Positions 20,349-63,716 are shown, counted from the first letter of the stretch. The stretch: DNA of 64,000 nt from Nitrospirota bacterium (GCA_016194285.1 JACQBZ010000035.1:64385-128384); one strand, 5' to 3'. Notes: generated by a model from the sequence alone, not told the origin. Numbers and translations are program-made.

Positions 20349-20416
20349 AGATTCGGCGGCCGCAAGGACAGATCGTCTCGACTGGCTGTAATTTGTAATC
20401 GCCATATCGTCGCTTA

Positions 20417-20833
20417 TTAAGACCGAATGACCTTGACACCCGCCTTTCGCGCGGCCTTGATCAGTCGTCGATCCAAAGTCGCAAGCCCCAGACCTCTGCG
20501 CTGGGCTAGTTCCAAGTAAGCCGCATCATAGGCGGACAAGCCGTACTCTTGCGCCAGGGCATGAAAACGCCACATCACATCGGGGACCAGGTGGGTATCC
20601 GTCTGAATGGGAAGCATACCGTACAGTTCAACCAAGCGCATCCGGTCGGCCTCGGCCAGCCTTTGACGGCGCTGCGCCATCGTCAAGGCGTTCGCCATTT
20701 CATACCACCACAACGCCGGGACCCAAAGAACGCTCTTCCGGGGAACTCCCGCCAGAAACCGATCCGCCTGCTTCGACGTTTCATCGGGAAGCGCCCAGGC
20801 CAGCGCCAGGGAACAGTCGAGTACCCAGTCCAT
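20417..20833 (-). CDS. vapC: Type II toxin VapC (PIN domain)
   Basis: WVLDCSLALAW...E...LSAYDAAYLELAQRRGLGLATLDRRL; conserved acidic residues in PIN spacing; 1-nt overlap with the antitoxin. Confidence 0.85.
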   Translation of the reverse strand: MDWVLDCSLALAWALPDETSKQADRFLAGVPRKSVLWVPALWWYEMANALTMAQRRQRLAEADRMRLVELYGMLPIQTDTHLVPDVMWRFHALAQEYGLSAYDAAYLELAQRRGLGLATLDRRLIKAARKAGVKVIRS

Positions 20834-21087
20834 CAGGTGCGGCGACCCTCCTCGATCAACTTTCGGATTTTAACCCGACCGGGGATCCGCTTGCGGATCT
20901 CACGGAAGGAGGCGATAATCCGAACGAGATCCGATGCTCGCCCCTCCCTTACCGGAGGAACCAATCGCGCCACCGCCTTGCCCCGCCTCCGGATCACGAA
21001 AGACCTCCCCCGTTCCGCCTCCCGGAGCAACTCCGAAAGATGGGTCTTGGCCTCGAACGCACTGACCGCAGACGTTTTACCGCTCAT
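20833..21087 (-). CDS. Type II antitoxin, Phd/YefM family
   Basis: VSAFEAKTHLSELLREAERGRSFVIRRRGKAVARLVP. Confidence 0.82.
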   Translation of the reverse strand: MSGKTSAVSAFEAKTHLSELLREAERGRSFVIRRRGKAVARLVPPVREGRASDLVRIIASFREIRKRIPGRVKIRKLIEEGRRT

Positions 21088-21111
21088 AGGGAATCCTCCT
21101 CAGCTATCTAT

Positions 21112-21146: not shown

Positions 21147-21240
21147 GCCTTCCTGCCCCTTGCCCGCGCCTCCAGCCTCTTCCCTCTAACCTCCAACGCC
21201 TTTCATCATCTCCTCAATCGCCTCCGCCACGAGATCCAGC

Positions 21241-21287
21241 ATCGGACTCTTTTTCCCCTCACGCCTCACCCCTTACTCCTCATGCCT
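21241..21287. repeat. GTNAGG-unit repeat (R1)
   Basis: Plus strand ctttttCCCCTCACGCCTCACCCCTTACTCCTCATGCC equals minus strand GGCATGAGGAGTAAGGGGTGAGGCGTGAGGGGaaaaag. Abuts the sugar-transferase stop. Confidence 0.7.
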
Positions 21288-21947
21288 TTAGACCTTCTTC
21301 CCCCTCGCCTCCCACCGGCCGCGGAACGTGATCCAGAACGAAAGCGCGATCAGCTTAAGATCAAGCCAGAAGCACCGGCGCTCAATATACTCTAAATCAA
21401 AGATGAGTTTATCCGCATCAGGCGCATCATAGGGCCTGTATACCTGAGCGAGACCGGTCAGCCCCGGTTGGATCCGATGTCGTTCGTGATAATTCGGGAT
21501 CTGGTCTATCAAACGTACAATGGCTTCCGGCCGCTCCGGGCGCGGTCCCACGAAGCTCATGTCGCCCTTGAGGATATTCCAGAGTTGGGGCAATTCATCC
21601 GTCGCAGTCGCGCGAAGCACACGGCCTATGCGAGTGACACGCGGATCATTTTCTTTCGCCCAGACAACACCGGTCGTTCGCTCTGCATCTACAATCATTG
21701 ATCGGAATTTGATGGCGTCAAACACCCTGCCGCCCAATCCCACACGCCTCTGGCGGTACAAAACCGGCCCGCCGTCTTCTAGTTTAACAGCCGCTGCTAC
21801 CAGAAGCCACAGGGGTGATGAACAGACCAACCCAACGGCGGATAGTCCTACATCCAGGGCCCGTTTGGCCGGTGAGATGGGTAAAAGTTCAACGGTCGGG
21901 ATACGTTCATCAGCAGACGCAGCAAAACACTTCAGAGGCGCATTCAT
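21288..21947 (-). CDS. Small polyprenyl-phosphate sugar-phosphate transferase (Bac_transf, PglC/WbaP-C-like)
   Basis: KRALDVGLSAVGLV...LYRQRRVG..G..F...KFRSM...DPRVTRIGRVLRATATDELPQLWNILKGDMSFVGPRPERPE. Confidence 0.88.
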   Translation of the reverse strand: MNAPLKCFAASADERIPTVELLPISPAKRALDVGLSAVGLVCSSPLWLLVAAAVKLEDGGPVLYRQRRVGLGGRVFDAIKFRSMIVDAERTTGVVWAKENDPRVTRIGRVLRATATDELPQLWNILKGDMSFVGPRPERPEAIVRLIDQIPNYHERHRIQPGLTGLAQVYRPYDAPDADKLIFDLEYIERRCFWLDLKLIALSFWITFRGRWEARGKKV

Positions 21948-34817: not shown

Positions 34818-36734
34818 TTATAGGAATTCCTCCATCGAAGTATCTGGCGTAATATCTTTATCAATAAACAATCTATGCCAAAGCTCAAGCCACAATAGTG
34901 ACCATAACTTATATTCATGATCTTTCCCTACTAAATGTTCATTGATAATATGTTGAATATAGTCGTAATTAAAGTAGCCTCGCGTTCTTGCTTTATCGCT
35001 TAATATGATATTATACAAATATGGTTTTAATTCTTTTCTGAACCATGGTCCAACTGGAATTGCAAATCCCCATTTAGACCTGTAGATATTCTCTTTGGGA
35101 AGATATTTCTCGGAGAGTTTTTTTAACAGATACTTTGTCTGTTTTAACTTAATTTTATGACCCGACGGTATTTTAGCAGCAAATTCCATTATACGATAAT
35201 CAAGAAAAGGAGCTCTAACTTCTAAGGAGTTAGACATGGATGCCACATCCATCTTCACTTGATAAGCATCCGGTAAAATAGCATTAAAGTCTACAAATAG
35301 CACTTTATCTATATCATCAACTCCATCAGCATAATCATAAAATTCTTCATAAACATGCGACGGATGATGATATTCTAATCTTTCCATAAATTGATCGGAA
35401 TAGAAGTTTTCTCTATCATAATAATTTCCCATTTCATTTTTATATCGCAATCGAGTGGTTTCATTTATATAATTTTCATAAAGCCTGATACGCTTTAACC
35501 GATAAGATCTATCGGTGGAATCTCCAAAGGTATTAAAAAATGGATAAAGAATATTTTTTGAAATAAAACGAGGAACGAATCTTTTATATTTTAGCGCCCA
35601 ATTAACTGTTTGAGTCCTATCATAACCTGCGAATGATTCATCTCCACCATCGCCAGTCAAGACGACTTTAACATATTCACGTGCTAATTTAGAAATGTAA
35701 TAACTTGGAACAGCGGATGAGTCAGCAAATGGTTCACCGTAATTCCATACCAATTTCGGCAGGATATTAATACAATTAGCATTTAATATTAATTCATGAT
35801 GATCGGTATCATACTTATCAGAAATTTTTTTTGCAAAAGAAAGTTCATTGTAAGGCTGATAATCAAATCCCACAGAAAATGTTTTAACTTTGGATATGTG
35901 ACTGCTCATCAAAGCCACGATTAAACTTGAATCAATACCCCCACTGAGGAATGCTCCGATTGGAACATCACCAATCAATCTGTCTTTAACCGATTGATGT
36001 AACAAGCTGTCTATTACTTGGATATATTGATTCTCATCCATAACTTCTTTTTTCTTGAAGCTGAGATACCAATATCTTTGAATTATTGTTTTATCTTTTT
36101 GAAACACAACATAATGTGACGGTTGAACTTTTTTTATTCCTTTATATATTGTATGGGCCTGGGGAATGCATATATGAGCCAAATAACAATCAATAGCCTT
36201 TTCATCAATCACAAGATTACATACATAACCGCTATTTATTATCGATTTAATATCGGACGCAAATATCACAGACTCATTAACTTCTAAGTAAAATAAAGGT
36301 TTTTTGCCAACCCGATCCCGACATAATATTAACATTTCTTTCCGAGCATCCCAAATTGCCATTGCAAACATTCCATTCAACTTTTCAAAAACTTGTACTC
36401 CCCACTCTTCATATCCATGTATGATTACTTCGCTATCACTCTTTGATTTAAATACATGTCCAGCTTTTACAAGATTCTCCCTTATTTCACCAAAATTATA
36501 TATTTCCCCATTAAAAACCATCCAAAGTTGCTTGTCTTCATTACACATGGGCTGCTGTGCAGCGTCTGATAAGTCTATTATTTTCAATCGACGATGACCC
36601 AAACCAATATGCTCTCCCATATAAATACCGGCACCATCAGGGCCTCGTTCGATCATTATATCTCTCATCTTAATAATATGCTTTTCCAGTACAGGTGAAG
36701 TCCCTTTTATATAAACACCACAAATGCCACACAT
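34818..36734 (-). CDS. Asparagine synthase (glutamine-hydrolysing)-family amidotransferase
   Basis: MCGICGVY (Ntn Cys2), GHRRLKIIDLS, and the PP-loop FLSGGIDSS. Confidence 0.9.
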   Translation of the reverse strand: MCGICGVYIKGTSPVLEKHIIKMRDIMIERGPDGAGIYMGEHIGLGHRRLKIIDLSDAAQQPMCNEDKQLWMVFNGEIYNFGEIRENLVKAGHVFKSKSDSEVIIHGYEEWGVQVFEKLNGMFAMAIWDARKEMLILCRDRVGKKPLFYLEVNESVIFASDIKSIINSGYVCNLVIDEKAIDCYLAHICIPQAHTIYKGIKKVQPSHYVVFQKDKTIIQRYWYLSFKKKEVMDENQYIQVIDSLLHQSVKDRLIGDVPIGAFLSGGIDSSLIVALMSSHISKVKTFSVGFDYQPYNELSFAKKISDKYDTDHHELILNANCINILPKLVWNYGEPFADSSAVPSYYISKLAREYVKVVLTGDGGDESFAGYDRTQTVNWALKYKRFVPRFISKNILYPFFNTFGDSTDRSYRLKRIRLYENYINETTRLRYKNEMGNYYDRENFYSDQFMERLEYHHPSHVYEEFYDYADGVDDIDKVLFVDFNAILPDAYQVKMDVASMSNSLEVRAPFLDYRIMEFAAKIPSGHKIKLKQTKYLLKKLSEKYLPKENIYRSKWGFAIPVGPWFRKELKPYLYNIILSDKARTRGYFNYDYIQHIINEHLVGKDHEYKLWSLLWLELWHRLFIDKDITPDTSMEEFL

Positions 36735-38145: not shown

Positions 38146-40047
38146 TTAAAAAGACTGCCGCAGCCACAACTCCAGATTTATATATTTCCATATCGGGCGT
38201 GGATTTACAGGCTCGCCGTTCACAAACCCCTGAAAGTGCTTTACGACCGCATCACCATCGAAATATCGTCTCTCCCTGAAGCTCTTCGAATGGATTATTT
38301 CCTCTATCTGTTTCCTGCAATCAGTGCGGAACCATAGTATTTCGGGAGTAGCAAATCCTATCTTTTTTATACGTTGATGCACAGCATGAGGAAGGATCTC
38401 TTTAAGCGCATTGCGCAGGACTACCTTCCCTATACCATTTCGAATTTTTTGTCTTGAGGGCAGCGAGAAACAAAATTCCACAAGCCTGTAATCCAGAAAG
38501 GGGAGTCTGGATTCAATAGAAAACGCCATTGAATTCCTATCCTCGTATCTTAAAAGTGAAGGCAGACGCTCAAAGGTCAAAAAATGGTACAGGCTCTGAT
38601 CCATATATCCATTGTATTTTTCCTTTTCTTCAATCCCGCCTCCATGAGTCTTAATGAAATCCTTATTCAGCCAGGAAGGAAACAAACCCATTTCCTCATC
38701 CCCCAGTAAACGTCTTTTCCATCGGAAGGGATGAAAAGGGACAAAGTGCCTGAAAAGTTCTCTGACCAGCCACTGCTTAGGATAACCATGGTATTCGGAA
38801 TACTTGTCAATTTCGTTTTTCAGAGAACTCCACCTGAGTCCTTTGAATAAATCTTTGAAGTTCGCCAAAAAGTAGCTCCCGTATCCAGCCAGAATTTCAT
38901 CCGCCCCCTGACCATTGAGAACAACCGTAATGCCCCGCTCCCTTGCCAGCCTCATAACCATCCATCCCGCCCACTGGCTTGTGCCTGCTACAGGCTCACC
39001 CTGATCTTCAATAAACTTCGGCGCGAGGTCAAACAGTTCCTTCCCTTCAGGGAAAACGTAGTTGGTCTCAACTCTTGTTCTTTCTACGACCGCTTTTATA
39101 AATTCTCTTTCATCACACGCTTTATCTTCAAAGCATGCCGAGAAGGTTTTCTGTCTGCTGCCGATCACGCCGGGGTTAACGCCATCATTCGATATCAGTT
39201 TGCTGATCATGCAGACGATTGATGATGAATCCAACCCGCCGCTCAGACACGTACCCAGCGGAACCTCGCTCTGGAGTCTTAAACGTATTGAATCTTCGAA
39301 AAGGGCATGAAATCTCTGCGCAGCTTCTTGGTCTGAAATACGCACAATCTTTTTTGACGGATCCAGGTCCCAGTGTCTCGAAATTTTGCAGCCGCCATTT
39401 ATATCAACAACCATGCGGTGGGCAGGCACGAGCCTTTTAATCCCGTCAAAGAAAGTTTCCTCCGTATGGTCAATGTAGTCGTTATTTTCGTAAGCAAGGT
39501 AGTCAAAAATAACACGGTCGTTTGGCCCGCAAGGTATTTTTTTATCCGTGAGGATCGTCTTTATTTCTGAGGCAAAGATGAAGCGGTTCTCATCTAAAAA
39601 GTAATAGAACGGTTTTATTCCGAACCTGTCTCTCGCGCAAAATAATTGTTTTTTTCTCGTATCCCACAATGCAAAAGCCCACATGCCGTTAAATTTGTTA
39701 AGACAATCCTCTCCCCATTCCTCATACCCGTGAATAATTACCTCGGAATCCGTCCTGGATTTAAAAACATGGCCCCTCGCTTTAAGTTCAGACGCAAGTT
39801 CCGAATAATTGTATATCTCGCCATTATAGGTCAGCCATATCGTCTTGTCTTCGTTGCACATAGGCTGGTGACCGGCGGCGGTCAAATCAATGATCGAAAG
39901 GCGTCTATGAATCAAGGCAATTCCGTCGTCTAAATAGAACCCCGCGTCATCGGGTCCTCTGCGATAGAGGCTGTCACTCATCGCCTTTAGGGTCTCTTTA
40001 CCTATCGGCCGATCATTAAAATTCAATATTCCAGCTATTCCACACAT
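38146..40047 (-). CDS. Asparagine synthase (glutamine-hydrolysing)-family amidotransferase, second copy
   Basis: MCGIAGILNF...IHRRLSIIDLT...CLSGGLDSS. Start set to ATG 40047 so that Cys is residue 2. Confidence 0.9.
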   Translation of the reverse strand: MCGIAGILNFNDRPIGKETLKAMSDSLYRRGPDDAGFYLDDGIALIHRRLSIIDLTAAGHQPMCNEDKTIWLTYNGEIYNYSELASELKARGHVFKSRTDSEVIIHGYEEWGEDCLNKFNGMWAFALWDTRKKQLFCARDRFGIKPFYYFLDENRFIFASEIKTILTDKKIPCGPNDRVIFDYLAYENNDYIDHTEETFFDGIKRLVPAHRMVVDINGGCKISRHWDLDPSKKIVRISDQEAAQRFHALFEDSIRLRLQSEVPLGTCLSGGLDSSSIVCMISKLISNDGVNPGVIGSRQKTFSACFEDKACDEREFIKAVVERTRVETNYVFPEGKELFDLAPKFIEDQGEPVAGTSQWAGWMVMRLARERGITVVLNGQGADEILAGYGSYFLANFKDLFKGLRWSSLKNEIDKYSEYHGYPKQWLVRELFRHFVPFHPFRWKRRLLGDEEMGLFPSWLNKDFIKTHGGGIEEKEKYNGYMDQSLYHFLTFERLPSLLRYEDRNSMAFSIESRLPFLDYRLVEFCFSLPSRQKIRNGIGKVVLRNALKEILPHAVHQRIKKIGFATPEILWFRTDCRKQIEEIIHSKSFRERRYFDGDAVVKHFQGFVNGEPVNPRPIWKYINLELWLRQSF

Positions 40048-50532: not shown

Positions 50533-50544
50533 CAAGCTACCGCC
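50533..50544 (-). promoter_or_regulatory. ops (operon polarity suppressor) element
   Basis: Minus strand reads GGCGGTAGCTTG. This matches the enterobacterial ops consensus GGCGGTAGnnTG in all specified positions. It lies 85 nt after the rfaH-like stop and 110 nt before the first glycan gene. Confidence 0.7.
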
Positions 50545-50628: not shown

Positions 50629-51162
50629 TTAGTGAACGCCTGCCCCGACAGCCACGACCTTTTCCCGTTCAATGACCACGCGGGCCTGATAGGCCAGGGC
50701 CTGAAGGAGCAGCACCACACGCTCCCCACCGCTCATCGGCCGCTCAAAGACGGCCAATAAACCCTTTAAAGGCCCTTCCTGGATCGTGACGGGGCCCTGA
50801 GGTTGAAGAGGAGGTTCAGGAAGGGTCACAAATCCTTCCTTCACACTTGCCCTCAGGCTATGGATGATCTCCGGATCTATGGGCTCCGGATGCGGGCCAA
50901 AGGCCACCACCCTTCGGACGCCCCTGGCATACTGCACGGTACGATAGTGTGATTCCAGACTGAATCGAGCGAAGAGATATCCCGGAAAGAGCGGGCCGGT
51001 CGCCACCTTCCGGCTTCCCCGAATCCGTTTACTCTCCCGAAGTTTCGGATAGAACATCTCAATCCCTGCGCGGCCCAGAAGCCACACCACCTGCTCTTCC
51101 TGATGCGGCTTGGTGTTCACGGCATACCATCGGGTACTGTCTTTCGCTCTCTCCAGAATCAT
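50629..51162 (-). CDS. RfaH-like specialised NusG paralogue (NGN + KOW)
   Basis: WYAVNTKPHQEEQV...PLFPGYLFARFS...ARGVRRVVAFG...IIHSL...VTIQEGPLKGLLAVFERPMSGGERVVLLLQAL aligns by eye along the whole length of E. coli RfaH (PLFPNYLFVEFD, TRGVSHFVRFG, VIITEGAFEGFQAIF). Confidence 0.8.
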   Translation of the reverse strand: MILERAKDSTRWYAVNTKPHQEEQVVWLLGRAGIEMFYPKLRESKRIRGSRKVATGPLFPGYLFARFSLESHYRTVQYARGVRRVVAFGPHPEPIDPEIIHSLRASVKEGFVTLPEPPLQPQGPVTIQEGPLKGLLAVFERPMSGGERVVLLLQALAYQARVVIEREKVVAVGAGVH

Positions 51163-51233: not shown

Positions 51234-51263
51234 AAATCTTAACAGGCCTGCGATGCCGCACAT
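51234..51263 (-). pseudogene. Relic 5' end of an asparagine-synthase gene (F1, 10 codons)
   Basis: ATGTGCGGCATCGCAGGCCTGTTAAGATTT = MCGIAGLLRF; compare MCGIAGLLKF in F3. Confidence 0.6.
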
Positions 51264-51335
51264 TTGCGTATATCGCGTTTTTGCGTTTGTCGCGTTTCTT
51301 GAGTTTATTGCGTTCATAGCGTTTGTAGCGTTTGT
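51264..51335. repeat. Eight tandem 9-bp units, consensus nGCGTTTnT
   Basis: TTGCGTATA TCGCGTTTT TGCGTTTGT CGCGTTTCT TGAGTTTAT TGCGTTCAT AGCGTTTGT AGCGTTTGT. Confidence 0.85.
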
Positions 51336-51343
51336 TTATATTA

Positions 51344-51372
51344 TTGACATTTGTGACATTAAATGCCATAAT
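51344..51372 (+). promoter_or_regulatory. sigma70 promoter of TA cassette 1 with TGACATT direct repeat
   Basis: TTGACA-17 nt-CATAAT. TTGACATTTGTGACATT contains TGACATT twice. RBS AAGGAGG precedes ATG 51396. Confidence 0.65.
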
Positions 51373-51395
51373 TGACGCAAAAGGAGGTTAAGACC

Positions 51396-51704
51396 ATGGC
51401 ACTGACAGCCCAGTATGAGAAAACGTACACCGCCGAGGAGGTGGCGGAACTCCTCCACTGCAGTCCCGGCGGAGTTCGATCCATGATCCGTCGAGGAAAC
51501 TTGCGAGCCATTAAGGTCGGTCGGCGATATCTCGTCCCCGAATCGGCAATTGATGCCCTTGGATTTTCCAATCTTAAACTCTTTTCAGACATTAAGGATG
51601 CCTCGGCATATGTCCGTAAAATACGCAGGGCGGCGGAGATGAAACCCGACGGCCGCAAGAAGTCGGCCAAGGAGTTCATCAATGAGATTAAGTCCGCTAA
51701 ATGA
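51396..51704 (+). CDS. Excisionase/MerR-type HTH antitoxin (cassette 1)
   Basis: YTAEEVAELLHCSPGGVRSMIRRGNLRAIKVGRRYLVPESAIDAL; ATGA overlap with the PIN gene. Confidence 0.75.
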   Translation: MALTAQYEKTYTAEEVAELLHCSPGGVRSMIRRGNLRAIKVGRRYLVPESAIDALGFSNLKLFSDIKDASAYVRKIRRAAEMKPDGRKKSAKEFINEIKSAK

Positions 51705-52141
51705 GGCCGGAGCTCCGTGAGCGGGTGCGCCCGCCGGCCCAGAAGGGCCTTCTCCTGGACACCGACGTCCTGATTAACATTCTGAAACATATCCCTGGTT
51801 ATGCTTCCCTTTTCCACCGGCAGTCCCGTCGGCTTTACTATGCCTCAATCTCTAAAAAAGAACTCTACGGCAAGCACGGACTGACAAGATCCGAGGCCAT
51901 TGCCATTGCCGAGCTTCTTACAAAAATACGTAAAGTCGATCTGGACCGTTCGATTCTGCGACGTTATGATTCCCTGCTTCGCAGATATCATCATCGCCGC
52001 CTCCTTAAGGCGGATGCCCTCATCGCAGCCACGGCCTGGGCCAAGGGCCTCATCCTGATCACGGGTAATGTGACCGACTTTTCCTTCATTGAGGAAATCC
52101 AAGTTGTCTCCCCCGATGATCTTCCGGTTCGGCCGCTTTAA
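51701..52141 (+). CDS. PIN-domain toxin (VapC-like, cassette 1)
   Basis: LLLDTDVLINIL...SKKELY...KADALIAATAWAKGLILITGNVTDF. Confidence 0.8.
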   Translation: MRPELRERVRPPAQKGLLLDTDVLINILKHIPGYASLFHRQSRRLYYASISKKELYGKHGLTRSEAIAIAELLTKIRKVDLDRSILRRYDSLLRRYHHRRLLKADALIAATAWAKGLILITGNVTDFSFIEEIQVVSPDDLPVRPL

Positions 52142-52144
52142 ATG

Positions 52145-52270
52145 CCGTAAGGCATTAGGCGTGAGGCGGAAGGCGTGAGGGGGAAAAAACCGTGAAGCGT
52201 GAGGCGGGAGGCGTTAGGAGAGTTGATGAGCTACCCCCTGACCCCTTACGCCTTACGTCTTTTACCCCTT
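52145..52270. repeat. GTNAGG-unit imperfect palindrome (R2)
   Basis: CCGTAAGGCATTAGGCGTGAGGCGGAAGGCGTGAGGGGGaaaaaaCCGTGAAGCGTGAGGCGGGAGGCGTTAGGAG ... CCCCCTGACCCCTTACGCCTTACG. Confidence 0.8.
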
Positions 52271-52272
52271 CC

Positions 52273-52302
52273 TTGACACCCCGCCCCAAATCCTGATATT
52301 CT
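52273..52302 (+). promoter_or_regulatory. sigma70 promoter of TA cassette 2
   Basis: TTGACA-18 nt-TATTCT. RBS GGAGGG precedes ATG 52350. Confidence 0.5.
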
Positions 52303-52349
52303 ATATTTCAGAAATTCCAACTTTTTACCTTTTGGCATTGGAGGGTCCC

Positions 52350-52631
52350 ATGAGTCAACCCAAACCGCTCACCAAGCTGGTCAGGCCGCTTCCGAAGGGA
52401 CAGATCACGCTCCCGATCGAGTTCCGGCGCCGCTTGAAGATCGATGATAAAACAATTTTGAGCCTTTCACTCAAGGGCTCCAAGATCGAGATCCTCCCGC
52501 TTCGCCCCATGTCCCGCAAGGCGGATCTGCGGGAATACGAAGAGGATGAGATCCAGACGTTTCTAAATGAAGACCGGCTCGATCCAAAGACGGCAGGGAA
52601 AGTCCGTCGTCTCCTCAGGAAAACGGCGTGA
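52350..52631 (+). CDS. AbrB/SpoVT-type antitoxin (cassette 2)
   Basis: LPKGQITLPIEFRRRLKIDDKTILSLSLKGSKIEILP (swapped-hairpin motif); GTGA overlap with the PIN gene. Confidence 0.78.
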   Translation: MSQPKPLTKLVRPLPKGQITLPIEFRRRLKIDDKTILSLSLKGSKIEILPLRPMSRKADLREYEEDEIQTFLNEDRLDPKTAGKVRRLLRKTA

Positions 52632-53074
52632 AGCCGGTTCCCCGCCTGTTTCTGGACGCCAGCGTATGGATTGCGGCGGCCGGTTCGACGACCGGTGGTT
52701 CCGCGGCGACCCTCGAACTGTGCCGCCGGAATAAAACCCGGGCCGTTGCCAGCCGCTTCGTCCTTCTCGAGGCCGAGCGCAACATCCGGAAGAAACTGGG
52801 CCGCGAGGCCCTGCTCCGTTTCTACCGGGAGATCGCCTCTCTCGAAATCAAGGTGATCGAGACACCGACTTCGCGCGAGATCGCCGCTCAAAACCGGACC
52901 ATCGACTCCAAGGATGCCCATGTCCTGGCCGCAGCCGTGAAGAGCCACGCCGAATTTCTTCTGACTCTGGATCGCAAGGACTTTATGACGTCGAAGGTGC
53001 TTCATGCCGGACTTCCTTTCCAGATCATGACGCCGGGTGATTTTCTGCGATTCTGGCTTGAAAAACAAACATAG
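52628..53074 (+). CDS. PIN-domain toxin (cassette 2)
   Basis: LFLDASVWIAA...VLLEAERN...SKDAHVLAAAV...LTLDRKDF. Confidence 0.8.
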   Translation: MKPVPRLFLDASVWIAAAGSTTGGSAATLELCRRNKTRAVASRFVLLEAERNIRKKLGREALLRFYREIASLEIKVIETPTSREIAAQNRTIDSKDAHVLAAAVKSHAEFLLTLDRKDFMTSKVLHAGLPFQIMTPGDFLRFWLEKQT

Positions 53075-53104
53075 TGCCTCGCCCCTCTTGCCCCACTTGA
53101 TCAT

Positions 53105-53260
53105 CCCCTTGCCATCCGGCCCCCGATGGACCCGGGCGTCGATCATCCTCCGCACGGCCGAGACGTCTTCGGGCCTGCTTGCCGCCCGCCTGCCGGACAG
53201 GCAGGGACAGGCGGGCGTCATGGAAGCGTTAAATTTTAAGATGCCGGCGATGCCGCACAT
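53105..53260 (-). pseudogene. Relic 5' end of an asparagine-synthase gene (F2, 52 codons including a 39-nt palindromic insert)
   Basis: MCGIAGILKFNASMTP[ACPCLSGRRAASR]PEDVSAVRRMIDARVHRGPDGKG. Similarity stops 30 nt from the cassette-2 PIN stop. Confidence 0.8.
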
Positions 53261-53283
53261 TTTTAATACCCCGACCCTCTTTC

Positions 53284-53312
53284 TTGACACCGGCCACGTA
53301 ATCTTTTATAGT
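53284..53312 (+). promoter_or_regulatory. sigma70 promoter of TA cassette 3 (possibly leaderless)
   Basis: TTGACA-17 nt-TATAGT. ATG 53320 lies 7 nt after the -10; a second ATG at 53338 has AAGGA upstream. Confidence 0.6.
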
Positions 53313-53319
53313 TACTCAT

Positions 53320-53529
53320 ATGAAAAAGGAATCCGCCATGAAACCATTCAAAACAACGCCTCATTCTTTGTACTCCAAAGAGATGGAGAAGTTCATCGAA
53401 AAAATAAAGAAACTGGCCCAGAAAGGAAAACTGAACTACGAACAGGATCCCTTCTGGTCCGCCGCTCCTCAGAAACTGGGACGAACCAACAGCTCCAAAC
53501 TCGACGCCCTCCTCTATCGAAAATCTTGA
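53320..53529 (+). CDS. Putative antitoxin of cassette 3 (family not recognised)
   Basis: 69-aa ORF whose TGA overlaps the ATG of the PIN gene (TGATG). Assignment is by position only. Confidence 0.55.
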   Translation: MKKESAMKPFKTTPHSLYSKEMEKFIEKIKKLAQKGKLNYEQDPFWSAAPQKLGRTNSSKLDALLYRKS

Positions 53530-53960
53530 TGGAACTGATCTTCCTCGACACTTCTTTTCTTTTCGCCTACTATAACCAAAACGATAAACACCATCAAAGG
53601 GCCCATCGTTTCTTCCAAGAGGTGATTCAAAACCACTCGGCCGAAATCGGCTGGGTCCTCACCGACTATATCTTCGATGAATTAGTCACCCTGATTCTCA
53701 TACGGACCAAGGATAAGACCAAAGCCATTTTCACGGGAAAGTCCCTTCTCAATTCCAAAACCATTCAGCTTTTCCATTTAAAACCTGAAACGATTGACCG
53801 CTCATGGACTCTTTTTACAAAGTATCGAGATAAATTGTGGAGTTTCACGGATTGCACCTCGATTACGTTCATGCAAGAAAACCGTATCTCTAAAGTCGCC
53901 ACCTTTGATGTCCACTTTAAAGAAGCCGGCCTCGTCTCCGTCCCGCTCGTTCGCGGTTAA
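53529..53960 (+). CDS. PIN-domain toxin (VapC-like, cassette 3)
   Basis: MELIFLDTSFLFAYYNQND...DYIFDELVTL...FTDCTSITFMQENRISKVATFDVHF. Only the last 143 aa of ORF 53037..53960 are gene-like. Confidence 0.8.
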   Translation: MELIFLDTSFLFAYYNQNDKHHQRAHRFFQEVIQNHSAEIGWVLTDYIFDELVTLILIRTKDKTKAIFTGKSLLNSKTIQLFHLKPETIDRSWTLFTKYRDKLWSFTDCTSITFMQENRISKVATFDVHFKEAGLVSVPLVRG

Positions 53961-53997
53961 CGAGGGGACTTAACCGCTACGCGTATCGCCGCTTTTT

Positions 53998-54026
53998 TTG
54001 ATTTTCACAGCCGACTCTTTTATAAT
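53998..54026 (+). promoter_or_regulatory. sigma70 promoter upstream of the small hydrophobic ORF
   Basis: TTGATT-17 nt-TATAAT. Confidence 0.55.
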
Positions 54027-54105
54027 CAATCCATCCGGAATATTAATCGCATTCATTGTTTTAGGTCTCGGATTAGTCATCACGCCCGAAGAAAAGGAGT
54101 GACTC

Positions 54106-54207
54106 ATGGAGATCATCATCTTGATCCTCGCAGGCTTGGCGCTTTTTGCCGCGGTCGCCGCTGGTTACTTTAAGTACTCCGAGTGGAGAAATAAACATCA
54201 GCATTAA
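54106..54207 (+). CDS. 33-aa hydrophobic peptide (single TM helix + basic tail)
   Basis: Below the ORF-track cutoff. RBS AAAAGGAG lies 6 nt before the ATG. Sequence MEIIILILAGLALFAAVAAGYFKYSEWRNKHQH. Confidence 0.5.
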   Translation: MEIIILILAGLALFAAVAAGYFKYSEWRNKHQH

Positions 54208-54308
54208 TCATCCCTCCTTGCCCTCGACCCGAACAGAAGAATATGCCGCACGGATGGCCCCGGTCTCCGCCGCAACTCGGCCGCATATTCTTTCACAACC
54301 TGATCCAT
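54204..54308 (-). pseudogene. Truncated MNT-type nucleotidyltransferase fragment
   Basis: RBS GAGGAGG. MDQVVKEYAAELRRRPGPSVRHILLFGSRARRDD then stop; the LFGSxARG motif is present but the catalytic DxD part is missing. Confidence 0.4.
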
Positions 54309-54438
54309 CTTGACGCCCTCCTCATTTCCCAATCATCTTATCAAAGCGGACGGGATACATTGTACCTTACATTCTCCTATAAAGTCCCGCATCCCTTGAA
54401 GCCTTCGCTCGATTTCTCCCGTCTCGCGCAGATCGATA

Positions 54439-54555
54439 CAGTCCCTCCCCATCCGGCCCGCGATGGATATGGGCGTTGATCATCCGTCGGACGGCCGAGA
54501 CGTCTTCGGGCGTCGTGGGAGCGTTAAATTTTAAGAGACCGGCTATTCCACACAT
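54439..54555 (-). pseudogene. Relic 5' end of an asparagine-synthase gene (F3, 39 codons)
   Basis: MCGIAGLLKFNAPTTPEDVSAVRRMINAHIHRGPDGEG, after which the reading frame loses all AsnB character. Confidence 0.8.
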
Positions 54556-54610
54556 GGGTTAACTACCGTGAGGCGTGAGGCGGAAAGCGTGAGGGGGAAA
54601 AGATTAACCC
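54556..54610. repeat. GTNAGG-unit repeat (R3) enclosed by GGGTTAA/TTAACCC arms
   Basis: GGGTTAACTACCGTGAGGCGTGAGGCGGAAAGCGTGAGGGGGAAAAGATTAACCC. Confidence 0.8.
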
Positions 54611-54643: not shown

Positions 54644-54672
54644 TTGACTTTCATGGGTCTTCATCTTACAAT
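54644..54672 (+). promoter_or_regulatory. sigma70 promoter of cassette 4
   Basis: TTGACT-17 nt-TACAAT. Confidence 0.55.
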
Positions 54673-54725
54673 GATTACACTAACATTGACATCAATCCTT
54701 TCATTAAACAGAAAGGGCTCCGACA

Positions 54726-55016
54726 GTGAAACTCTTGAAACTTAAAACCAAAGACCCTGAGCAAGCCTCGACTCTGCTCCAAGAAGCCATCTCGAATGAA
54801 TTGAAACTGATCCAAACCGGCATTGATCAACTCCAGGCGGAGATTCGTACGTTTGAACAAAAATACCGTCAATCCTCGAAAGAGTTCTTCCGCAAGTACC
54901 AGCAAGGAAAAGCCGGCGATCAGTCGGACTTTATCGATTGGGCCGGCCTTTATCAACTGCTGCTCGATCTCCGACAAGAGTCGCTCCAGCTCAAGGAGAT
55001 TGAGATCTGCAATTAG
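54726..55016 (+). CDS. Hypothetical coiled-coil protein (possible antitoxin of a decayed cassette)
   Basis: 96-aa ORF with GTG start and a heptad-like sequence (IQTGIDQLQAEIRTFEQKYRQSSKEF). The downstream 190 nt hold only broken frames. Confidence 0.5.
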   Translation: MKLLKLKTKDPEQASTLLQEAISNELKLIQTGIDQLQAEIRTFEQKYRQSSKEFFRKYQQGKAGDQSDFIDWAGLYQLLLDLRQESLQLKEIEICN

Positions 55017-55208
55017 ACGAATACATCCGGACACTCGAAGCGGCTCTTGCCGCCTGCAGACCTCTTGTTTCTCGTCAACTGACTTTTTCAAAAGTGACCA
55101 GCCATAACCTTCCCTCACCACAAGCACATTGGAGAAGAGGAGACGGTTCATGCCTCGGCATCTCCAACCCTTCCGGAGGTACTGGACGAAATAGCCCGCC
55201 ACTTTAAG

Positions 55209-55289
55209 TACCGTGAGGCGTGAGGCGGAAGCGGCTTTTCCATTCTTTCCCCTTACGCCTTACCCTTTACCCCTGACGTTTTTCACCCC
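55209..55289. repeat. GTNAGG-unit imperfect palindrome (R4)
   Basis: TACCGTGAGGCGTGAGGCGGAA ... CCCCTTACGCCTTACCCTTTACCCCTGACGtttttCACCCCTCACG; runs up to the stop of the ligase gene. Confidence 0.8.
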
Positions 55290-57155
55290 TCACGTCTTCT
55301 TCAGCTTCTCCTCGATCTCCGCCGCCTTCGCCGGCTGGCCCGACTCCCGCAACTGTCGCGCGAGCCCGAGCGCACGATCCGTCTGCCCGGTCGCGGCAAA
55401 CCAAAGGCCGACGTAATGCTGAAAGAGGGGGTTCGTCGGGTCCAGTTTCAAGACACGGTTAAACTCCTCCGTCGCGGAGGCCGTCTCGCGGAGCTGCGCG
55501 CGGATCCAGCCCAGATGCAGGTGCGGCTCGGCCAGCGTCGGGGCCAGCGCGGCGGCGCGCTCGATCTCGGACCGGGCCGCCGGAAGAACCGAGGCGTCGC
55601 CCTGAACGTAGCGACGCTCGTCCAACTCGCCCATGGCCATATGGTACAGGGGATGGGCCGGGTCCCAGCCGATCGCACGACGGTAATCCTCACCGGCCCG
55701 ATCGAGCTTTCCTGCCTTCTCCAGCTCCAGACCGCAACGGTAATACCGGTCGGCCGCAAACGCGGCCGTCGTTTGAGCCGCCAGCAGACCGATCACGGCC
55801 AGTCCCGCGACGGCCGCCGACGGCCGACTCCGGTCGAAAACCGACTCGGAAGCCGTATCCTCCTCCCGCTCCGGCCGTGCGAGATTCCAGGCCAGCCCCA
55901 ACAGAACCGCAAACAACACCGCATTGGCCGGGATATGGAAATTGAAATCGGTGAGGCCGTGGATCAGCAGCGCGACGAGCCCGGTCACGAGGCCCATCAG
56001 CAAACCCTTCGCCCACGGGCTCCTCCGCCAGCGCCAGCCGGCGATAATGAATCCGAAGAGGACCCCGAGAATTCCGACGCTCAATCCGAATCCGACCCAG
56101 CCCGTCTCGGCCAGGAGTTGAATGTAATCATTGTGCGTATGCTCGTAGAAGACCTGATCCGGAAGCGTCTTGTAGGCCGGATAGACCACTCCGAAGGTTC
56201 CGAGCCCGGATCCCATCAAAGGATGGTCCGACACCAGCTTCGCGGTGTCCTTCCAGACCTCCACGCGCGCCAGCATCGAGTGGTCCTCTGTAATCCGAAG
56301 GAGGGTCTGGACACGATCGATGATCGGCCCCAGGCCGAACCAGGTGAGGGAGATCAAAAGAACCGTGAACAGGATCCCCGGCAGGAGGAGCCACTTCTGC
56401 GTGGCCCGGCCCAGCAGCAGGATCATGCCGATCAGGATGACGGCCACAAGGAAACTGAGGATGCCGGTGCGCGACAGGCTCAAAACGAGCGAGACCGACA
56501 TCACCAGGGTCATGAACAACAGCAGCGTCAATCGGTTGGCCCGCTCGCTCGTCAGCCGATCGATGAATCGCCGCCAGGCCGTGTCGCCCTTCGCCGGCAC
56601 GCCCGCGAACGCGGCCACGGTGTATCCGATCGAAAGCGGAATCAGCATCTCTATATAGCCGGCGAAATGGTTCCGGTTGACGAATGGGCCGAAGACCGCT
56701 CCGCTCTCCCGGACCTCGCGCAGCCAGAACATCTTCCCGTTCCAGGTATACCGCTGAAAGATGGCGAACAGCGCCACGCCGAATCCGATCACAACCAGGG
56801 CCAGGGTCAGGCGGTTAAACTCCCTTTCGGTCCGGACGGTCGAGACGACCAGCGCAAAGATCACGGCATAGGCGATTCCGAGGACCAACGCGTCGCGCGT
56901 GCCGCGCGGATAAAGCGAGGCTGCAGCGGTCTGTTGGACCAGCACCCATCCCGCGAACAGCGAGAGCATGACCCAAACCGGCCCGGGGAGCTTCGCCGGC
57001 GCTTTCCGGGCAAAGCCGTATTGGATCAGCCACAGACCGGCCAGGCCGAAGACGGCCAGCTCCAGGATGGACCGGGCCCAGACCTCGACAGACCCGAAGG
57101 CCAACGGCGCGAAAACGAGCAGGCTGATGAGGCCGATTTGGATGATGAGTGTCAT
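55290..57155 (-). CDS. O-antigen-ligase-family (Wzy_C) membrane protein with C-terminal TPR domain
   Basis: 12+ TM helices. RVEVWKDTAKLVSDHPLMGSGLGTF. C-terminal TPR-like repeats (YYRCGLELEKAGKLDRAGEDYRRAIGWDP...). Confidence 0.82.
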   Translation of the reverse strand: MTLIIQIGLISLLVFAPLAFGSVEVWARSILELAVFGLAGLWLIQYGFARKAPAKLPGPVWVMLSLFAGWVLVQQTAAASLYPRGTRDALVLGIAYAVIFALVVSTVRTEREFNRLTLALVVIGFGVALFAIFQRYTWNGKMFWLREVRESGAVFGPFVNRNHFAGYIEMLIPLSIGYTVAAFAGVPAKGDTAWRRFIDRLTSERANRLTLLLFMTLVMSVSLVLSLSRTGILSFLVAVILIGMILLLGRATQKWLLLPGILFTVLLISLTWFGLGPIIDRVQTLLRITEDHSMLARVEVWKDTAKLVSDHPLMGSGLGTFGVVYPAYKTLPDQVFYEHTHNDYIQLLAETGWVGFGLSVGILGVLFGFIIAGWRWRRSPWAKGLLMGLVTGLVALLIHGLTDFNFHIPANAVLFAVLLGLAWNLARPEREEDTASESVFDRSRPSAAVAGLAVIGLLAAQTTAAFAADRYYRCGLELEKAGKLDRAGEDYRRAIGWDPAHPLYHMAMGELDERRYVQGDASVLPAARSEIERAAALAPTLAEPHLHLGWIRAQLRETASATEEFNRVLKLDPTNPLFQHYVGLWFAATGQTDRALGLARQLRESGQPAKAAEIEEKLKKT

Positions 57156-57165
57156 AGGCTAAAAC

Positions 57166-57268
57166 CCGTAAGGGGTAAGGAGAGCGTATACGCTCTCTCG
57201 TCTTTTTCCCCTAACGCCTCCCGCCTAACGCCTTACGTCTTTTCACTCCTCACGCTCTCACCCTTTAC
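57166..57268. repeat. GTNAGG-unit imperfect palindrome (R5)
   Basis: CCGTAAGGGGTAAGGAGAGCGTATACGCTCTC...tttttCCCCTAACGCCTCCCGCCTAACGCCTTACG...CACTCCTCACGCTCTCACCCTTTACG; overlaps the last 11 codons of cpsB. Confidence 0.8.
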
Positions 57269-63678: not shown

Positions 63679-63716
63679 GGGAAAAGGACGTAAGGCGTGA
63701 GGAGTAAGGAGTAGGG
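63675..63716. repeat. GTNAGG-unit repeat (R8)
   Basis: GTGAGGGAAAAGGACGTAAGGCGTGAGGAGTAAGGAGTAGGG; starts in the lexA stop codon. Confidence 0.7.

Follow-up and report, generated by a model that had tools for sequence, protein, structure and literature searches.

Results

Three asnB gene starts at the edge of a glycan island

The window analyzed here is a stretch of 64,000 nucleotides from a Nitrospirota bacterium (GCA_016194285.1 JACQBZ010000035.1:64385-128384), whose minus strand carries, between positions 51,234 and 54,555, three short copies of the 5′ end of an asparagine synthase (asnB) gene. These fragments, here called stubs and designated F1, F2, and F3, are interspersed with toxin–antitoxin (TA) cassettes. 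The surrounding 4 kb (51.2 to 55.3 kb) is a lineage-wide zone of recombination and decay at the boundary between the core genome and a glycan island. The coordinates and readings of all three fragments in a preliminary description of this DNA were reproduced, although the insert reported there to add 13 amino acids to F2 measures 42 nt, or 14 codons.

51234–51263, minus strand: F1, terminal asnB stub; reads MCGIAGLLRF, ten homologous codons in a 34-codon open reading frame (ORF) reaching 51159
53105–53260, minus strand: F2, internal asnB stub; reads MCGIAGILKFNASMTP, a 14-amino acid insert, and EDVSAVRRMIDARVHRGPDGKG (38 codons plus the 14-codon insert)
54439–54555, minus strand: F3, internal asnB stub; reads MCGIAGLLKFNAPTTPEDVSAVRRMINAHIHRGPDGEG (38 to 39 codons)

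All three are 5′ relics of a gene for an AsnB-family amidotransferase. When compared with the NCBIfam hidden Markov models, F2 and F3 score as AsnB-family N-termini, with TIGR03108 as the top model (E values of 6e-7 to 2.5e-6, alignment to model positions 1 to 37) and TIGR01536 as the second (positions 1 to 36; E values of 2e-5 for F3 and 3.9e-6 for F2 without its insert). F1 matches neither model because its ten homologous codons are too few, and Pfam gave no match to any stub peptide because its GATase models begin past residue 32. Both F2 and F3 carry the Met-Cys-GIxG start, which includes the Cys2 nucleophile, and the HRGPD motif near residues 30 to 36, whereas F1 retains only MCGIAG. The assignment of F1 is supported by its identity to the other stubs at 23 to 27 of 30 nt and by the fact that F1 and its 70-nt upstream flank are homologous to a complete stub and flank in a related locus (L006, 457–550; 81% over 95 nt).

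Intact relatives of the truncated gene exist at the same locus in other genomes, where the first 38 asnB codons are 70 to 83% identical to the stubs. F3 matches the intact 638-amino acid AsnB protein of one relative (L016) at 70% over 44 amino acids (tblastn E value of 2e-15) and 83% over 118 nt, and this homology extends to nt 118 of the gene; that of F2 to intact alleles stops at about nt 116 to 120. The L016 protein has the full GATase plus Asn_synthase architecture that the stubs lack; because they are only 10 to 39 codons long, the stubs are relics rather than genes. The L016 protein scores 446 bits against TIGR01536 (cut-off 267) but only 434 bits against TIGR03108, whose equivalog cut-off is 816.9. 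General family scans, which included no test aimed at this system, found no exosortase XrtA or PEP-CTERM protein among the window ORFs scanned. The two full-length copies that had been noted within the island (34818–36734 and 38146–40047) are confirmed as AsnB-family genes, and they were considered as donors of the stubs. They were rejected because their N-termini are only 41 to 45% identical to the stubs and their sequence is low in G+C.

The preliminary description had proposed that the copies diverged while still coding and look like relics of different alleles or paralogs, and had counted about ten synonymous changes among 17 differing codons between F2 and F3. Our comparison supports the view that the stubs are relics of functional asnB alleles. 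With the insert set aside, F2 and F3 are 84% identical over 114 nt, and the 18 nucleotide differences fall at codon positions 1, 2, and 3 in the ratio 6/2/10. Exactly ten of the 17 codon differences are synonymous and seven are nonsynonymous, an excess with a binomial P of about 0.003 given that some 25% of random single-base changes are synonymous. Over all stubs, including those from relatives, 28 third positions are variable as compared with 19 and 17 at the other two positions.

Stubs of this lineage are already present in public collections (P0001–P0003 and P0125–P0134) as predicted proteins of 31 to 71 amino acids, under names that include “asparagine synthetase B” and “glutamate synthase domain-containing protein 1”; these names are an annotation artifact. 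Annotators should be aware that stubs of 40 to 70 amino acids are called asparagine synthetase B proteins in public data.

Cassettes, repeats, and genes around the stubs

The segments between the stubs were said to be filled with TA cassettes, and three PIN-type TA pairs are indeed found there. The array also includes a fourth, damaged cassette between F3 and the Wzy_C-TPR gene, a second kind of gene relic, and several small repeats.

51344–52141, plus strand: TA1; sigma-70-like promoter (51344–51372), HTH_17/excisionase-family antitoxin (51396–51704), PIN toxin (51701–52141)
52273–53074, plus strand: TA2; promoter (52273–52302), MazE/AbrB-type antitoxin (52350–52631), PIN_3 toxin (52628–53074)
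53284–53960, plus strand: TA3; promoter (53284–53312), unassigned 69-amino acid putative antitoxin (53320–53529), PIN toxin (53529–53960)
54644–55215, plus strand: cassette X; promoter (54644–54672), TumA-like antitoxin (54726–55016), toxin remnant
54204–54332, minus strand: 5′ relic of an MNT-type nucleotidyltransferase gene; 42 codons from its own ATG, cut after a GSRAR motif
51274–51342, plus strand: 9-nt repeat, GCGTTTNNN, in about seven tandem copies; lies between F1 and the TA1 promoter and abuts its −35 box
52139–52290, plus strand: hairpin of GGCGTGA-type heptamers resembling repetitive extragenic palindromic (REP) elements, directly past the TA1 stop codon; RNA z-scores −4.4 (plus) and −2.8 (minus)
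54556–54600, plus strand: half of a REP-like heptamer element, abutting the ATG of F3; the same flank class lies upstream of L002c and L006c
55201–55300, plus strand: REP-like hairpin overlapping the stop codon of the Wzy_C-TPR gene
53171–53216, minus strand: 42-nt in-frame palindromic insertion in F2; DNA hairpin z-score −2.7
50629–51162, minus strand: RfaH/UpxY-like NusG paralog (Pfam NusG), first gene of the low-GC glycan island
55290–57155, minus strand: Wzy_C-TPR gene, conserved; last core gene before the variable region and anchor for comparisons

TA1 to TA3 have the organization of type II (VapBC-like) systems, with predicted toxins, antitoxin and toxin genes that overlap by 4 nt or 1 nt, and promoters of their own. 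These promoters match 10 to 11 of 12 sigma-70 consensus positions, and the region holds 13 promoter-like sites where 2.9 are expected. The TA1 antitoxin belongs to excisionase family TIGR01764. The antitoxin of cassette X is TumA-like with a score (49 bits) below the cut-off. Relative to L006, the window copy of cassette X lacks about 170 nt (window 55234–55106 and 55106–54443 correspond to L006 690–818 and 988–1644), which suggests that its toxin has been inactivated and its antitoxin retained. The MNT relic gave no Pfam match at its length of 42 codons, and BLASTP aligns it with the N-terminus of an NTP_transf_2 protein of L002 (46% over 35 amino acids, E value of 7e-10). Thus, 5′ stubs in the array are not unique to asnB.

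A 33-codon hydrophobic ORF, MEIIILILAGLALFAAVAAGYFKYSEWRNKHQH (53998–54207, plus strand), is preceded by a promoter-like site that agrees with the consensus at 10 of 12 positions and has no family match; it could encode a small membrane toxin or peptide. At the left end of the island (about 20410–21090, minus strand), inspection by eye points to a likely TA pair, a Phd/YefM-like antitoxin followed by a PIN-like ORF, which adjoins a heptamer element at 21240–21290.

The heptamer family (GGCGTGA- and GGCGGAA-type units with their complements) has nine matches in the window where 0.01 is expected. Its elements sit just after stop codons, including the Wzy_C-TPR stop and both ends of the glycan island. 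Besides the site at 21240–21290, there are others at 57165–57240 and 63685–63715, with core intergenic matches at 21252, 57219, and 63689. The hairpins have z-scores of −2.4 to −4.6 and, owing to G-U pairs, fold better as plus-strand RNA. As short imperfect palindromes at many intergenic sites, typically after stop codons, they agree with the description of REP elements and bacterial interspersed mosaic elements. Their better folding as plus-strand RNA gives them the appearance of REP or terminator elements specific to this lineage. The palindrome within F2 has an 89%-identical copy in L002 (2117–2160), where it forms a 14-amino acid in-frame insertion, SSRLSLPVRQAGGR, in a Wzz-kinase gene that is apparently intact and whose window ortholog lacks the insertion. 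It can be viewed as a tiny element whose length, a multiple of three, would be tolerated inside coding sequence.

The window as a whole is about 60% G+C, and the island, at roughly 21 to 51 kb, is 33 to 50%. It encodes the RfaH/UpxY-like protein, sugar-nucleotide enzymes, a second Wzy_C protein, Wzm/Wzt, many glycosyltransferases, the two AsnB-family proteins, and a priming transferase. To the right of the array are core export genes for Wzy_C-TPR, a CpsB phosphatase, a Wzz-kinase, Poly_export, a BBP2 porin, and LexA. The Wzy_C-TPR protein is 100% identical to MBI3596538.1 from a Nitrospirae/Nitrospirota metagenome-assembled genome. The RfaH/UpxY-like protein scores below the NCBIfam cut-offs for both RfaH (105 bits) and UpxY (66 bits). 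The ATG of its gene (51162–51160) overlaps the stop codon of the F1 ORF (51161–51159) as ATGA. A search of the window for the ops element yielded two exact matches to GGCGGTAGNNT, a number not above chance. An exact ops-like sequence, GGCGGTAGCTT, lies at 50534–50544 (minus strand), just downstream of the RfaH-like gene and ahead of an RmlD-like gene.

Related genomes carry reordered stub arrays

Loci from relatives were retrieved with the Wzy_C-TPR protein and the stub peptides as queries. The comparison loci are short metagenomic contigs, of at most 10.4 kb through the arrays; stubs within each locus are lettered a to c.

L016: Wzy_C-TPR protein 71% identical; the Wzy_C-TPR stop codon overlaps the ATG of an intact asnB for 638 amino acids, N-terminus MCGIAGILKFGSPTAAEDLAAVRRMMDAQIHRGPDGEGLFRDERVVLGHRRL
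L013: Wzy_C-TPR, REP-like element, internally deleted AbiEii cassette, then intact asnB (at least 472 amino acids)
L010: 98.8% identical to L013 over 597 nt; breaks at nt 127 of asnB and continues into an epimerase-headed island
L002, L003, L014, L015, and L018: Wzy_C-TPR, RHH/PIN_3, stub a, TA1 homolog (87.5%), two MNT with HEPN, stub b (ATG lost), TA2 homolog (81.5%), stub c (about 95 codons, with a stop), epimerase-headed island
L006, L007, and L008: TA1 homolog (93.7%), 23S_rRNA_IVP, stub a, REP-like hairpin, cassette X, stub b, DUF433/PIN_10, REP-like element, stub c
L104: 40-codon stub joined directly to rmlA with an ATGA overlap
L105: 56-codon copy ending in ATGA at the contig end
L020, L021, and L023: sugar genes immediately after Wzy_C-TPR; no asnB and no TA cassettes

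The proposal that asnB stands at the head of the variable glycan locus is borne out by L016 and L013, where the intact gene occupies that place. The near-identical pair L010 and L013 differ only in that one has a stub where the other has an intact gene, and the break in L010 is, on this alignment, a recent stub-forming event. Assemblies of related metagenomes contain at least four further arrangements, each with one to three stubs together with the same and other self-promoted TA cassettes in different orders; three stubs each are present in L002/L003 and in L006/L007. Homologs of the window cassettes in these two groups are 87 to 94% (TA1), 81% (TA2), and 81 to 88% (cassette X) identical, and their order differs from that of the window. 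TA1 matches L002 6908–7771 at 87.5% and L007 1–809 at 93.7%, and units are reordered even between relatives whose TA1 copies are 94% identical. The 81.5% match of TA2 to L002 9074–9931 takes in the last 44 nt of the neighboring stub. Other cassettes at the relatives’ loci are of the RHH/PIN_3, MNT/HEPN, DUF433/PIN_10, 23S_rRNA_IVP, and AbiEii types.

One intact locus may bear a trace of a second gene copy. Downstream of the complete asnB of L016, an AbiEii cassette is followed by an asnB 3′ relic (L016 14480–14632; 28 of 34 nt identical to the gene’s own 3′ end) and then by flank sequence that, in L006 (1650–1761), directly follows stub b. These sequences suggest that some stubs may have arisen through internal deletion of once-complete second asnB copies. 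A similar 3′ relic considered in L013 was rejected, as that stretch belongs to the flank that precedes the AbiEii cassette; L009 begins with an ORF for an epimerase and not with asnB.

A profile search identified further stubs called as proteins of 31 to 71 amino acids in JGI, ENA, and Logan data, and protein searches with the stub queries returned only short ORFs, with no listing of full-length orthologs. A strict stub DNA pattern had no match in genome contigs and matched five loci in metagenome contigs, three of which were already known; a looser pattern had no match in viral contigs. A Wzy-anchored scan of genome contigs found a single close relative, already known, and 79 other, distant loci (at most 36% identical) without stubs. 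From these comparisons we conclude that the stub arrays are real, recurrent, polymorphic, and confined to this lineage.

The boundaries and decay of the stubs

In every stub, 5′ homology begins at the ATG. The observation that similarity starts exactly at the start codon thus stands, but the ATG is probably not itself a breakpoint. In L016, where the asnB ATG overlaps the Wzy_C-TPR stop, it is the native gene boundary, and elsewhere the stub flanks are REP-like hairpins, 9-nt repeats, and promoters of the adjacent TA cassettes, whose transcription diverges from that of the stubs. The upstream flanks had also been described as unrelated to one another, which is correct within the window, whereas among relatives they form recurrent classes.

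REP-like heptamer element with a GGTAnTTAA linker: F3, L002c, and L006c; F2 has the linker without the REP-like element
9-nt AAACGC repeats: F1, L002b, L006a, and L006b
Small ORF of the AbiEii cassette: L009, L010, and L013

The 9-nt repeats occur in relatives at L002 7712–7773 and 8926–8975 and at L006 449–510 and 1481–1530, and they touch the ATG of L002b, L006a, and L006b even where TA1 is not adjacent. In the window they lie near the gene for the TA1 antitoxin, an excisionase-family HTH_17 protein. The repeats could serve as an operator array or as recombination-directionality sites.

The claim that the same position was broken repeatedly is upheld by independent junctions of two kinds. 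The internal stubs lose homology to intact alleles at nt 112 to 135, in at least six distinct junction contexts, an estimate that is blurred because intact alleles are hypervariable past nt 114. If breaks fell independently and at random along a gene of 1.9 kb, they would cluster this tightly with a probability of about 3e-10, a rough value that ignores selection. The terminal stubs, which are fused to islands, end at nt 30 (F1), about 117 (L104), 127 (L010), about 156 (L105), and about 285 (L002c). Heptamer-like sequence follows the GPDGEG codons in the alleles L013, L002c, L006a, and L006b, lying in L013 and L002c at nt 120 to 165. In L006a the stub leads into a full heptamer hairpin and then cassette X, which mirrors the order of Wzy_C-TPR stop, hairpin, and cassette X in the window.

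The two halves of the stubs have different relationships. Their 5′ halves group by genome (82 to 91% identity within the window and L006, 50 to 60% between these and L002), whereas their 3′ halves are 72 to 91% identical throughout; the 3′ halves of the functional L013 and L016 alleles are 89% identical. The junction between the stub 3′ end and TA2 is common to the window and L002. The genome-clustered 5′ halves and this shared junction thus indicate recombination or gene conversion inside the stubs. Some stubs are decaying: L002b has lost its ATG, L006c reads HCGPEGEG, and P0127 carries G3D. Those that are intact have no frameshift or internal stop in 38 codons, aside from the in-frame insert of F2. 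An inverted repeat, CCATC-N8-GATGG, is visible by eye at the stub 3′ end and follows in part from the HRGPDG codons. Selection at the DNA level on the CCATCGCGGGCCGGATGG palindrome was considered and set aside, since codon usage (GGG 27%, GAT 40%, CAT 61%, CCG 67%) does not permit this conclusion for sequences related by descent. A promoter search found no promoter-like site directed at any stub, and neither a Shine–Dalgarno sequence nor a promoter is evident upstream of the internal stubs.

Searches for a recombinase, folded sites, and assembly errors

A Pfam scan of 63 chosen window ORFs (53 of the 85 of at least 150 amino acids plus ten shorter ones; the unscanned large ORFs are mostly overlapping alternatives) revealed no recombinase or integrase, with 60 of the 63 assigned to an unrelated family or to none. 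The remaining three are the TA ORFs at 51396–51704, 52350–52631, and 53320–53529 (plus strand), which had no result in that count and two of which were rescanned. Nor is a recombinase gene called in any of the related arrays. Rfam gave no match over 50 to 56 kb. As single-stranded DNA, F3 has folding z-scores of +0.3 and +1.3 on the two strands and hence no significant structure, and the idea that a stub is an attC site was rejected on this result.

An assembly chimera was likewise checked. An independent Logan assembly (SRR12113410) is 100% identical to the window over 3,146 nt spanning Wzy_C-TPR, the REP-like element, and cassette X, and separate assemblies by JGI, ENA, and Logan of at least five other samples also contain arrays of this kind. 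Furthermore, because they differ from one another by 14 to 16%, the stubs are not collapsible repeats.

Discussion

A proposed stack of recombination scars

The locus is an unusually clear field of recombination scars and not a new molecular machine. We favor, with a probability of about 0.5, the reading that the array is a stack of such scars at the core/island junction, formed without a dedicated recombinase, in which addiction modules are retained while other genes decay. New DNA would have been joined repeatedly into the resident asnB gene shortly past codons 38 to 45. The incoming DNA would comprise TA cassettes with promoters of their own, in most cases accompanied by another asnB allele and on occasion by an entire new glycan island. 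Each event would reduce the resident gene to a stub of some 40 codons from its start, and the incoming copy would become the head gene. At one side of the joint the DNAs could pair by homology, and at the other they could pair ectopically or through microhomology. The REP-like heptamer motif that lies in frame just past GPDGEG in several alleles is a plausible hot spot; elements of the same type also bound the cassettes and the Wzy_C-TPR stop. Recombination between the repeated stubs may later have reshuffled and deleted units, and the last event in the source genome would have been fusion of the RfaH-headed low-GC island at codon 10 of asnB, giving F1.

On this reading, the synonymous bias among stubs arises because each was a working allele until displaced, and the TA cassettes persist while their neighbors decay because they are independently expressed addiction modules. 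Signs of such decay include the MNT 5′ relic, the 170-nt deletion in the cassette X toxin, and the lost ATG of L002b. The ATGA coupling of F1 to the RfaH-like gene and of the L104 stub to rmlA suggests that there may have been selection for expressing the incoming island through the old asnB start.

Several observations weigh against this account. The flanks upstream of the stubs fall into at least four classes despite the constant start at the ATG, a combination that a recombinase-free model fits poorly, since it needs the cassettes always to have entered the zero-length gap between Wzy_C-TPR and asnB or the boundaries to have been inherited from a founder. REP-like or heptamer sequence is recognizable at the break only in L006a, L006b, and weakly in F2, and is absent from F3, L002a, L002b, and L006c. 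The clustering of breaks at nt 112 to 135 and the stub length of about 38 codons closely resemble the attachment (att) sites at the 5′ ends of dusA and prfC. Moreover, a recombinase gene could lie a few kilobases from the arrays or elsewhere in the genome, as the DNA searched comprises one 64-kb window and short contigs.

The preliminary inference of repeated recombination at the asnB 5′ end was largely right, but its views on precedent, on the start-codon boundary, and on the trapping of TA cassettes call for amendment. In that description, each event left a stub and trapped addiction modules. Stubs are indeed recurrent with TA cassettes between them, but they are not tied to such cassettes, as L104 illustrates with a stub that runs directly into rmlA. 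It is just as possible that the cassettes came in as part of the DNA that was joined.

Alternative explanations

The main rival explanation, which we consider unlikely, is that the array is a graveyard of site-specific integrative elements whose recombinase is elsewhere or lost and whose core site lay at about codons 33 to 38 of asnB, in the CCATCGCGGGCCGGATGG region. Each element would bring replacement codons 1 to 38, accretion would leave the stubs, and decay would reduce the elements to TA modules, that is, to integrase-less units akin to cis-mobilizable elements (CIMEs). The start of every stub at the ATG and its end within a 24-nt window, the coding type of divergence, and the distal copy that is intact (L013) or longest (L002c) are all consistent with this, as is the precedent of similar size in dusA elements and in SXT at prfC (PMC8409611). 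The inverted repeat at the stub 3′ end (seen by eye and partly dictated by HRGPDG codons), the excisionase-family antitoxin of TA1, and the 9-nt direct repeats beside several stubs can be added. However, no integrase was found among the scanned window ORFs or is called in the related arrays, the breaks appear scattered over nt 112 to 135 rather than fixed at one nucleotide, no promoter-like site faces a stub, and viral contigs yielded no match. Cassettes also lie between Wzy_C-TPR and the first stub, where none are predicted. The L016 locus has a cassette past its intact asnB, beside an asnB 3′ relic, and in L104 no element intervenes between stub and rmlA. Somewhat less probable still is tandem duplication in situ, by which unequal crossing-over between REP-like repeats at the Wzy_C-TPR stop and past codon 40 of asnB would copy units of a cassette plus the asnB 5′ end, with later cassette replacement and deletion giving the differing units of today. 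The lineage-specific 5′ half common to the stubs of one genome, the REP-like elements at the Wzy_C-TPR stop, at cassette ends, and at nt 120 to 165 of some asnB alleles, and the L006a junction that mirrors the window would all fit. Yet the cassettes between stubs are of unrelated families rather than duplicates, synonymous-biased differences are unexpected for dead DNA, and several junctions have no recognizable REP sequence.

We give a similarly low, doubtful standing to the idea that the REP-bounded first 38 or so codons of asnB are a portable recombination site of an integrase-free or trans-acting cassette system. Units of a self-promoted TA or defense cassette plus a stub would be excised by stub–stub recombination and could re-enter the asnB 5′ end of any genome in the lineage. 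The outcome would be a shuffleable defense array, similar to an integron, at the start of the surface-glycan locus, and the terminal stub would act as a leader cistron for each island joined to it; this elaboration is doubtful to the same degree. That the stubs are themselves functional, either as leader cistrons that pass translation on or as portable homology for cassette capture by transformation, is very unlikely. In its favor, the terminal stub ORF ends in a stop codon that overlaps the following ATG in the window, in L104, and apparently in L105, the intact stubs keep 38 open codons (the F2 insert aside), and the 3′ halves are, between lineages, about as conserved as the 3′ halves of the functional L013 and L016 alleles. 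But the internal stubs face convergent TA genes with no gene to couple to, lack an evident Shine–Dalgarno sequence or promoter, and in L002b, L006c, and P0127 are decaying. An assembly chimera or collapsed repeat, which might be feared in a metagenome-assembled genome where 114-nt repeats can mislead assemblers, is highly improbable given the identical independent assembly, the like arrays in at least five other samples, and the 14 to 16% differences between stubs. Least credible is an integron-like array without an integrase (a cluster of attC sites lacking integron-integrase, CALIN), with the stub or the heptamer hairpin as attC. The TA cassettes are co-oriented and each is followed by a repeat, and chromosomal integrons are known to carry TA cassettes. 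This reading is disfavored, however, by the absence of structure in single-stranded F3, by a heptamer element that is dispersed in the core genome and folds best as plus-strand RNA, by a strong promoter in every cassette, and by searches that found no IntI among the scanned window ORFs and, over 50 to 56 kb, no Rfam match.

Implications

Gene remnants at the borders of glycan loci, the build-up of TA systems in variable regions, and the replacement of gene 5′ ends by integrative elements are already known. What is unusual here is that several related genomes carry up to three stacked copies of the same 38-codon gene start, with a narrow break window; also unusual are the REP-like repeats associated with the break region and the coupling of the terminal stub to the first gene of the new island. 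The locus shows in rare detail how the boundary of a swappable surface-polysaccharide region evolves in an uncultured Nitrospirota lineage. As far as the pattern can be read from DNA, the same gene start appears to have been abandoned repeatedly, addiction modules to have built up in the scar zone, and a leftover mini-ORF to have become translationally coupled to the first gene of the new island. If the hot spot is an active recombination site, whether REP-mediated or served by a trans-acting recombinase, it would represent a new route to cassette arrays and a marker for the turnover of glycan and defense islands in metagenomes; if not, the locus is a well-documented case of ordinary recombination scars.

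Comparison with known systems

It had been stated that no described mechanism matches this pattern, but precedents exist in elements that target the 5′ ends of dusA and prfC and in accretion arrays. The N-terminus that elements in dusA bring is 35 residues long and shares 61% identity with the one it replaces, and SXT acts likewise in prfC (PMC8409611). In dusA islands and SXT/R391 at prfC, integration thus repeats a short stretch of 5′ coding sequence, leaves the native 5′ end behind as a displaced stub, and puts in its place an N-terminus that differs in sequence but not in length (PMC8409611). A comparable pattern is seen here, with 38 codons as against about 35 in dusA; the 38-codon stubs and the intact distal copy of L013 would fit this scheme, although recombinase-free models also yield such a pattern. 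Unlike in those elements, the DNA scanned here revealed no integrase, no recombination directionality factor shown to act, and no promoter toward the restored gene, the breaks appear spread over 24 nt, and the units are 0.8 to 2 kb of TA genes rather than elements of 20 to 100 kb.

Accretion arrays of integrase-less CIMEs adjoin integrative and conjugative elements (ICEs) in streptococci, and like them the present array consists of small tandem units bounded by repeated copies of one end of a target gene. In CIMEs the boundaries are genuine att sites, which are used by a known ICE integrase and lie at the 3′ end of fda, whereas the present array has yielded neither an integrase of that kind nor a defined core site. 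Sedentary chromosomal integrons carry TA cassettes and resemble the array in having co-oriented TA cassettes that stabilize a variable region; they differ in that the array has no attC structure, no IntI was found at this locus, and its cassettes have their own promoters.

Homology-facilitated illegitimate recombination during natural transformation combines one homologous anchor with one microhomology junction and, as proposed for the stubs, adds foreign DNA while truncating the resident gene. To our knowledge, it does not yield ordered arrays or a recurrent hot spot. O-antigen and capsule loci are replaced by recombination between conserved flanking genes with remnants left at the junctions, as in the minimal mobile elements of Neisseria. 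The present locus likewise has a variable glycan island between conserved genes that differs among close relatives, relics at its borders, and exchange apparently without dedicated mobility genes. It departs from clean homologous replacement, which leaves no stacked gene ends, in that up to three copies of one 5′ end are stacked here and the breaks fall within a narrow window.

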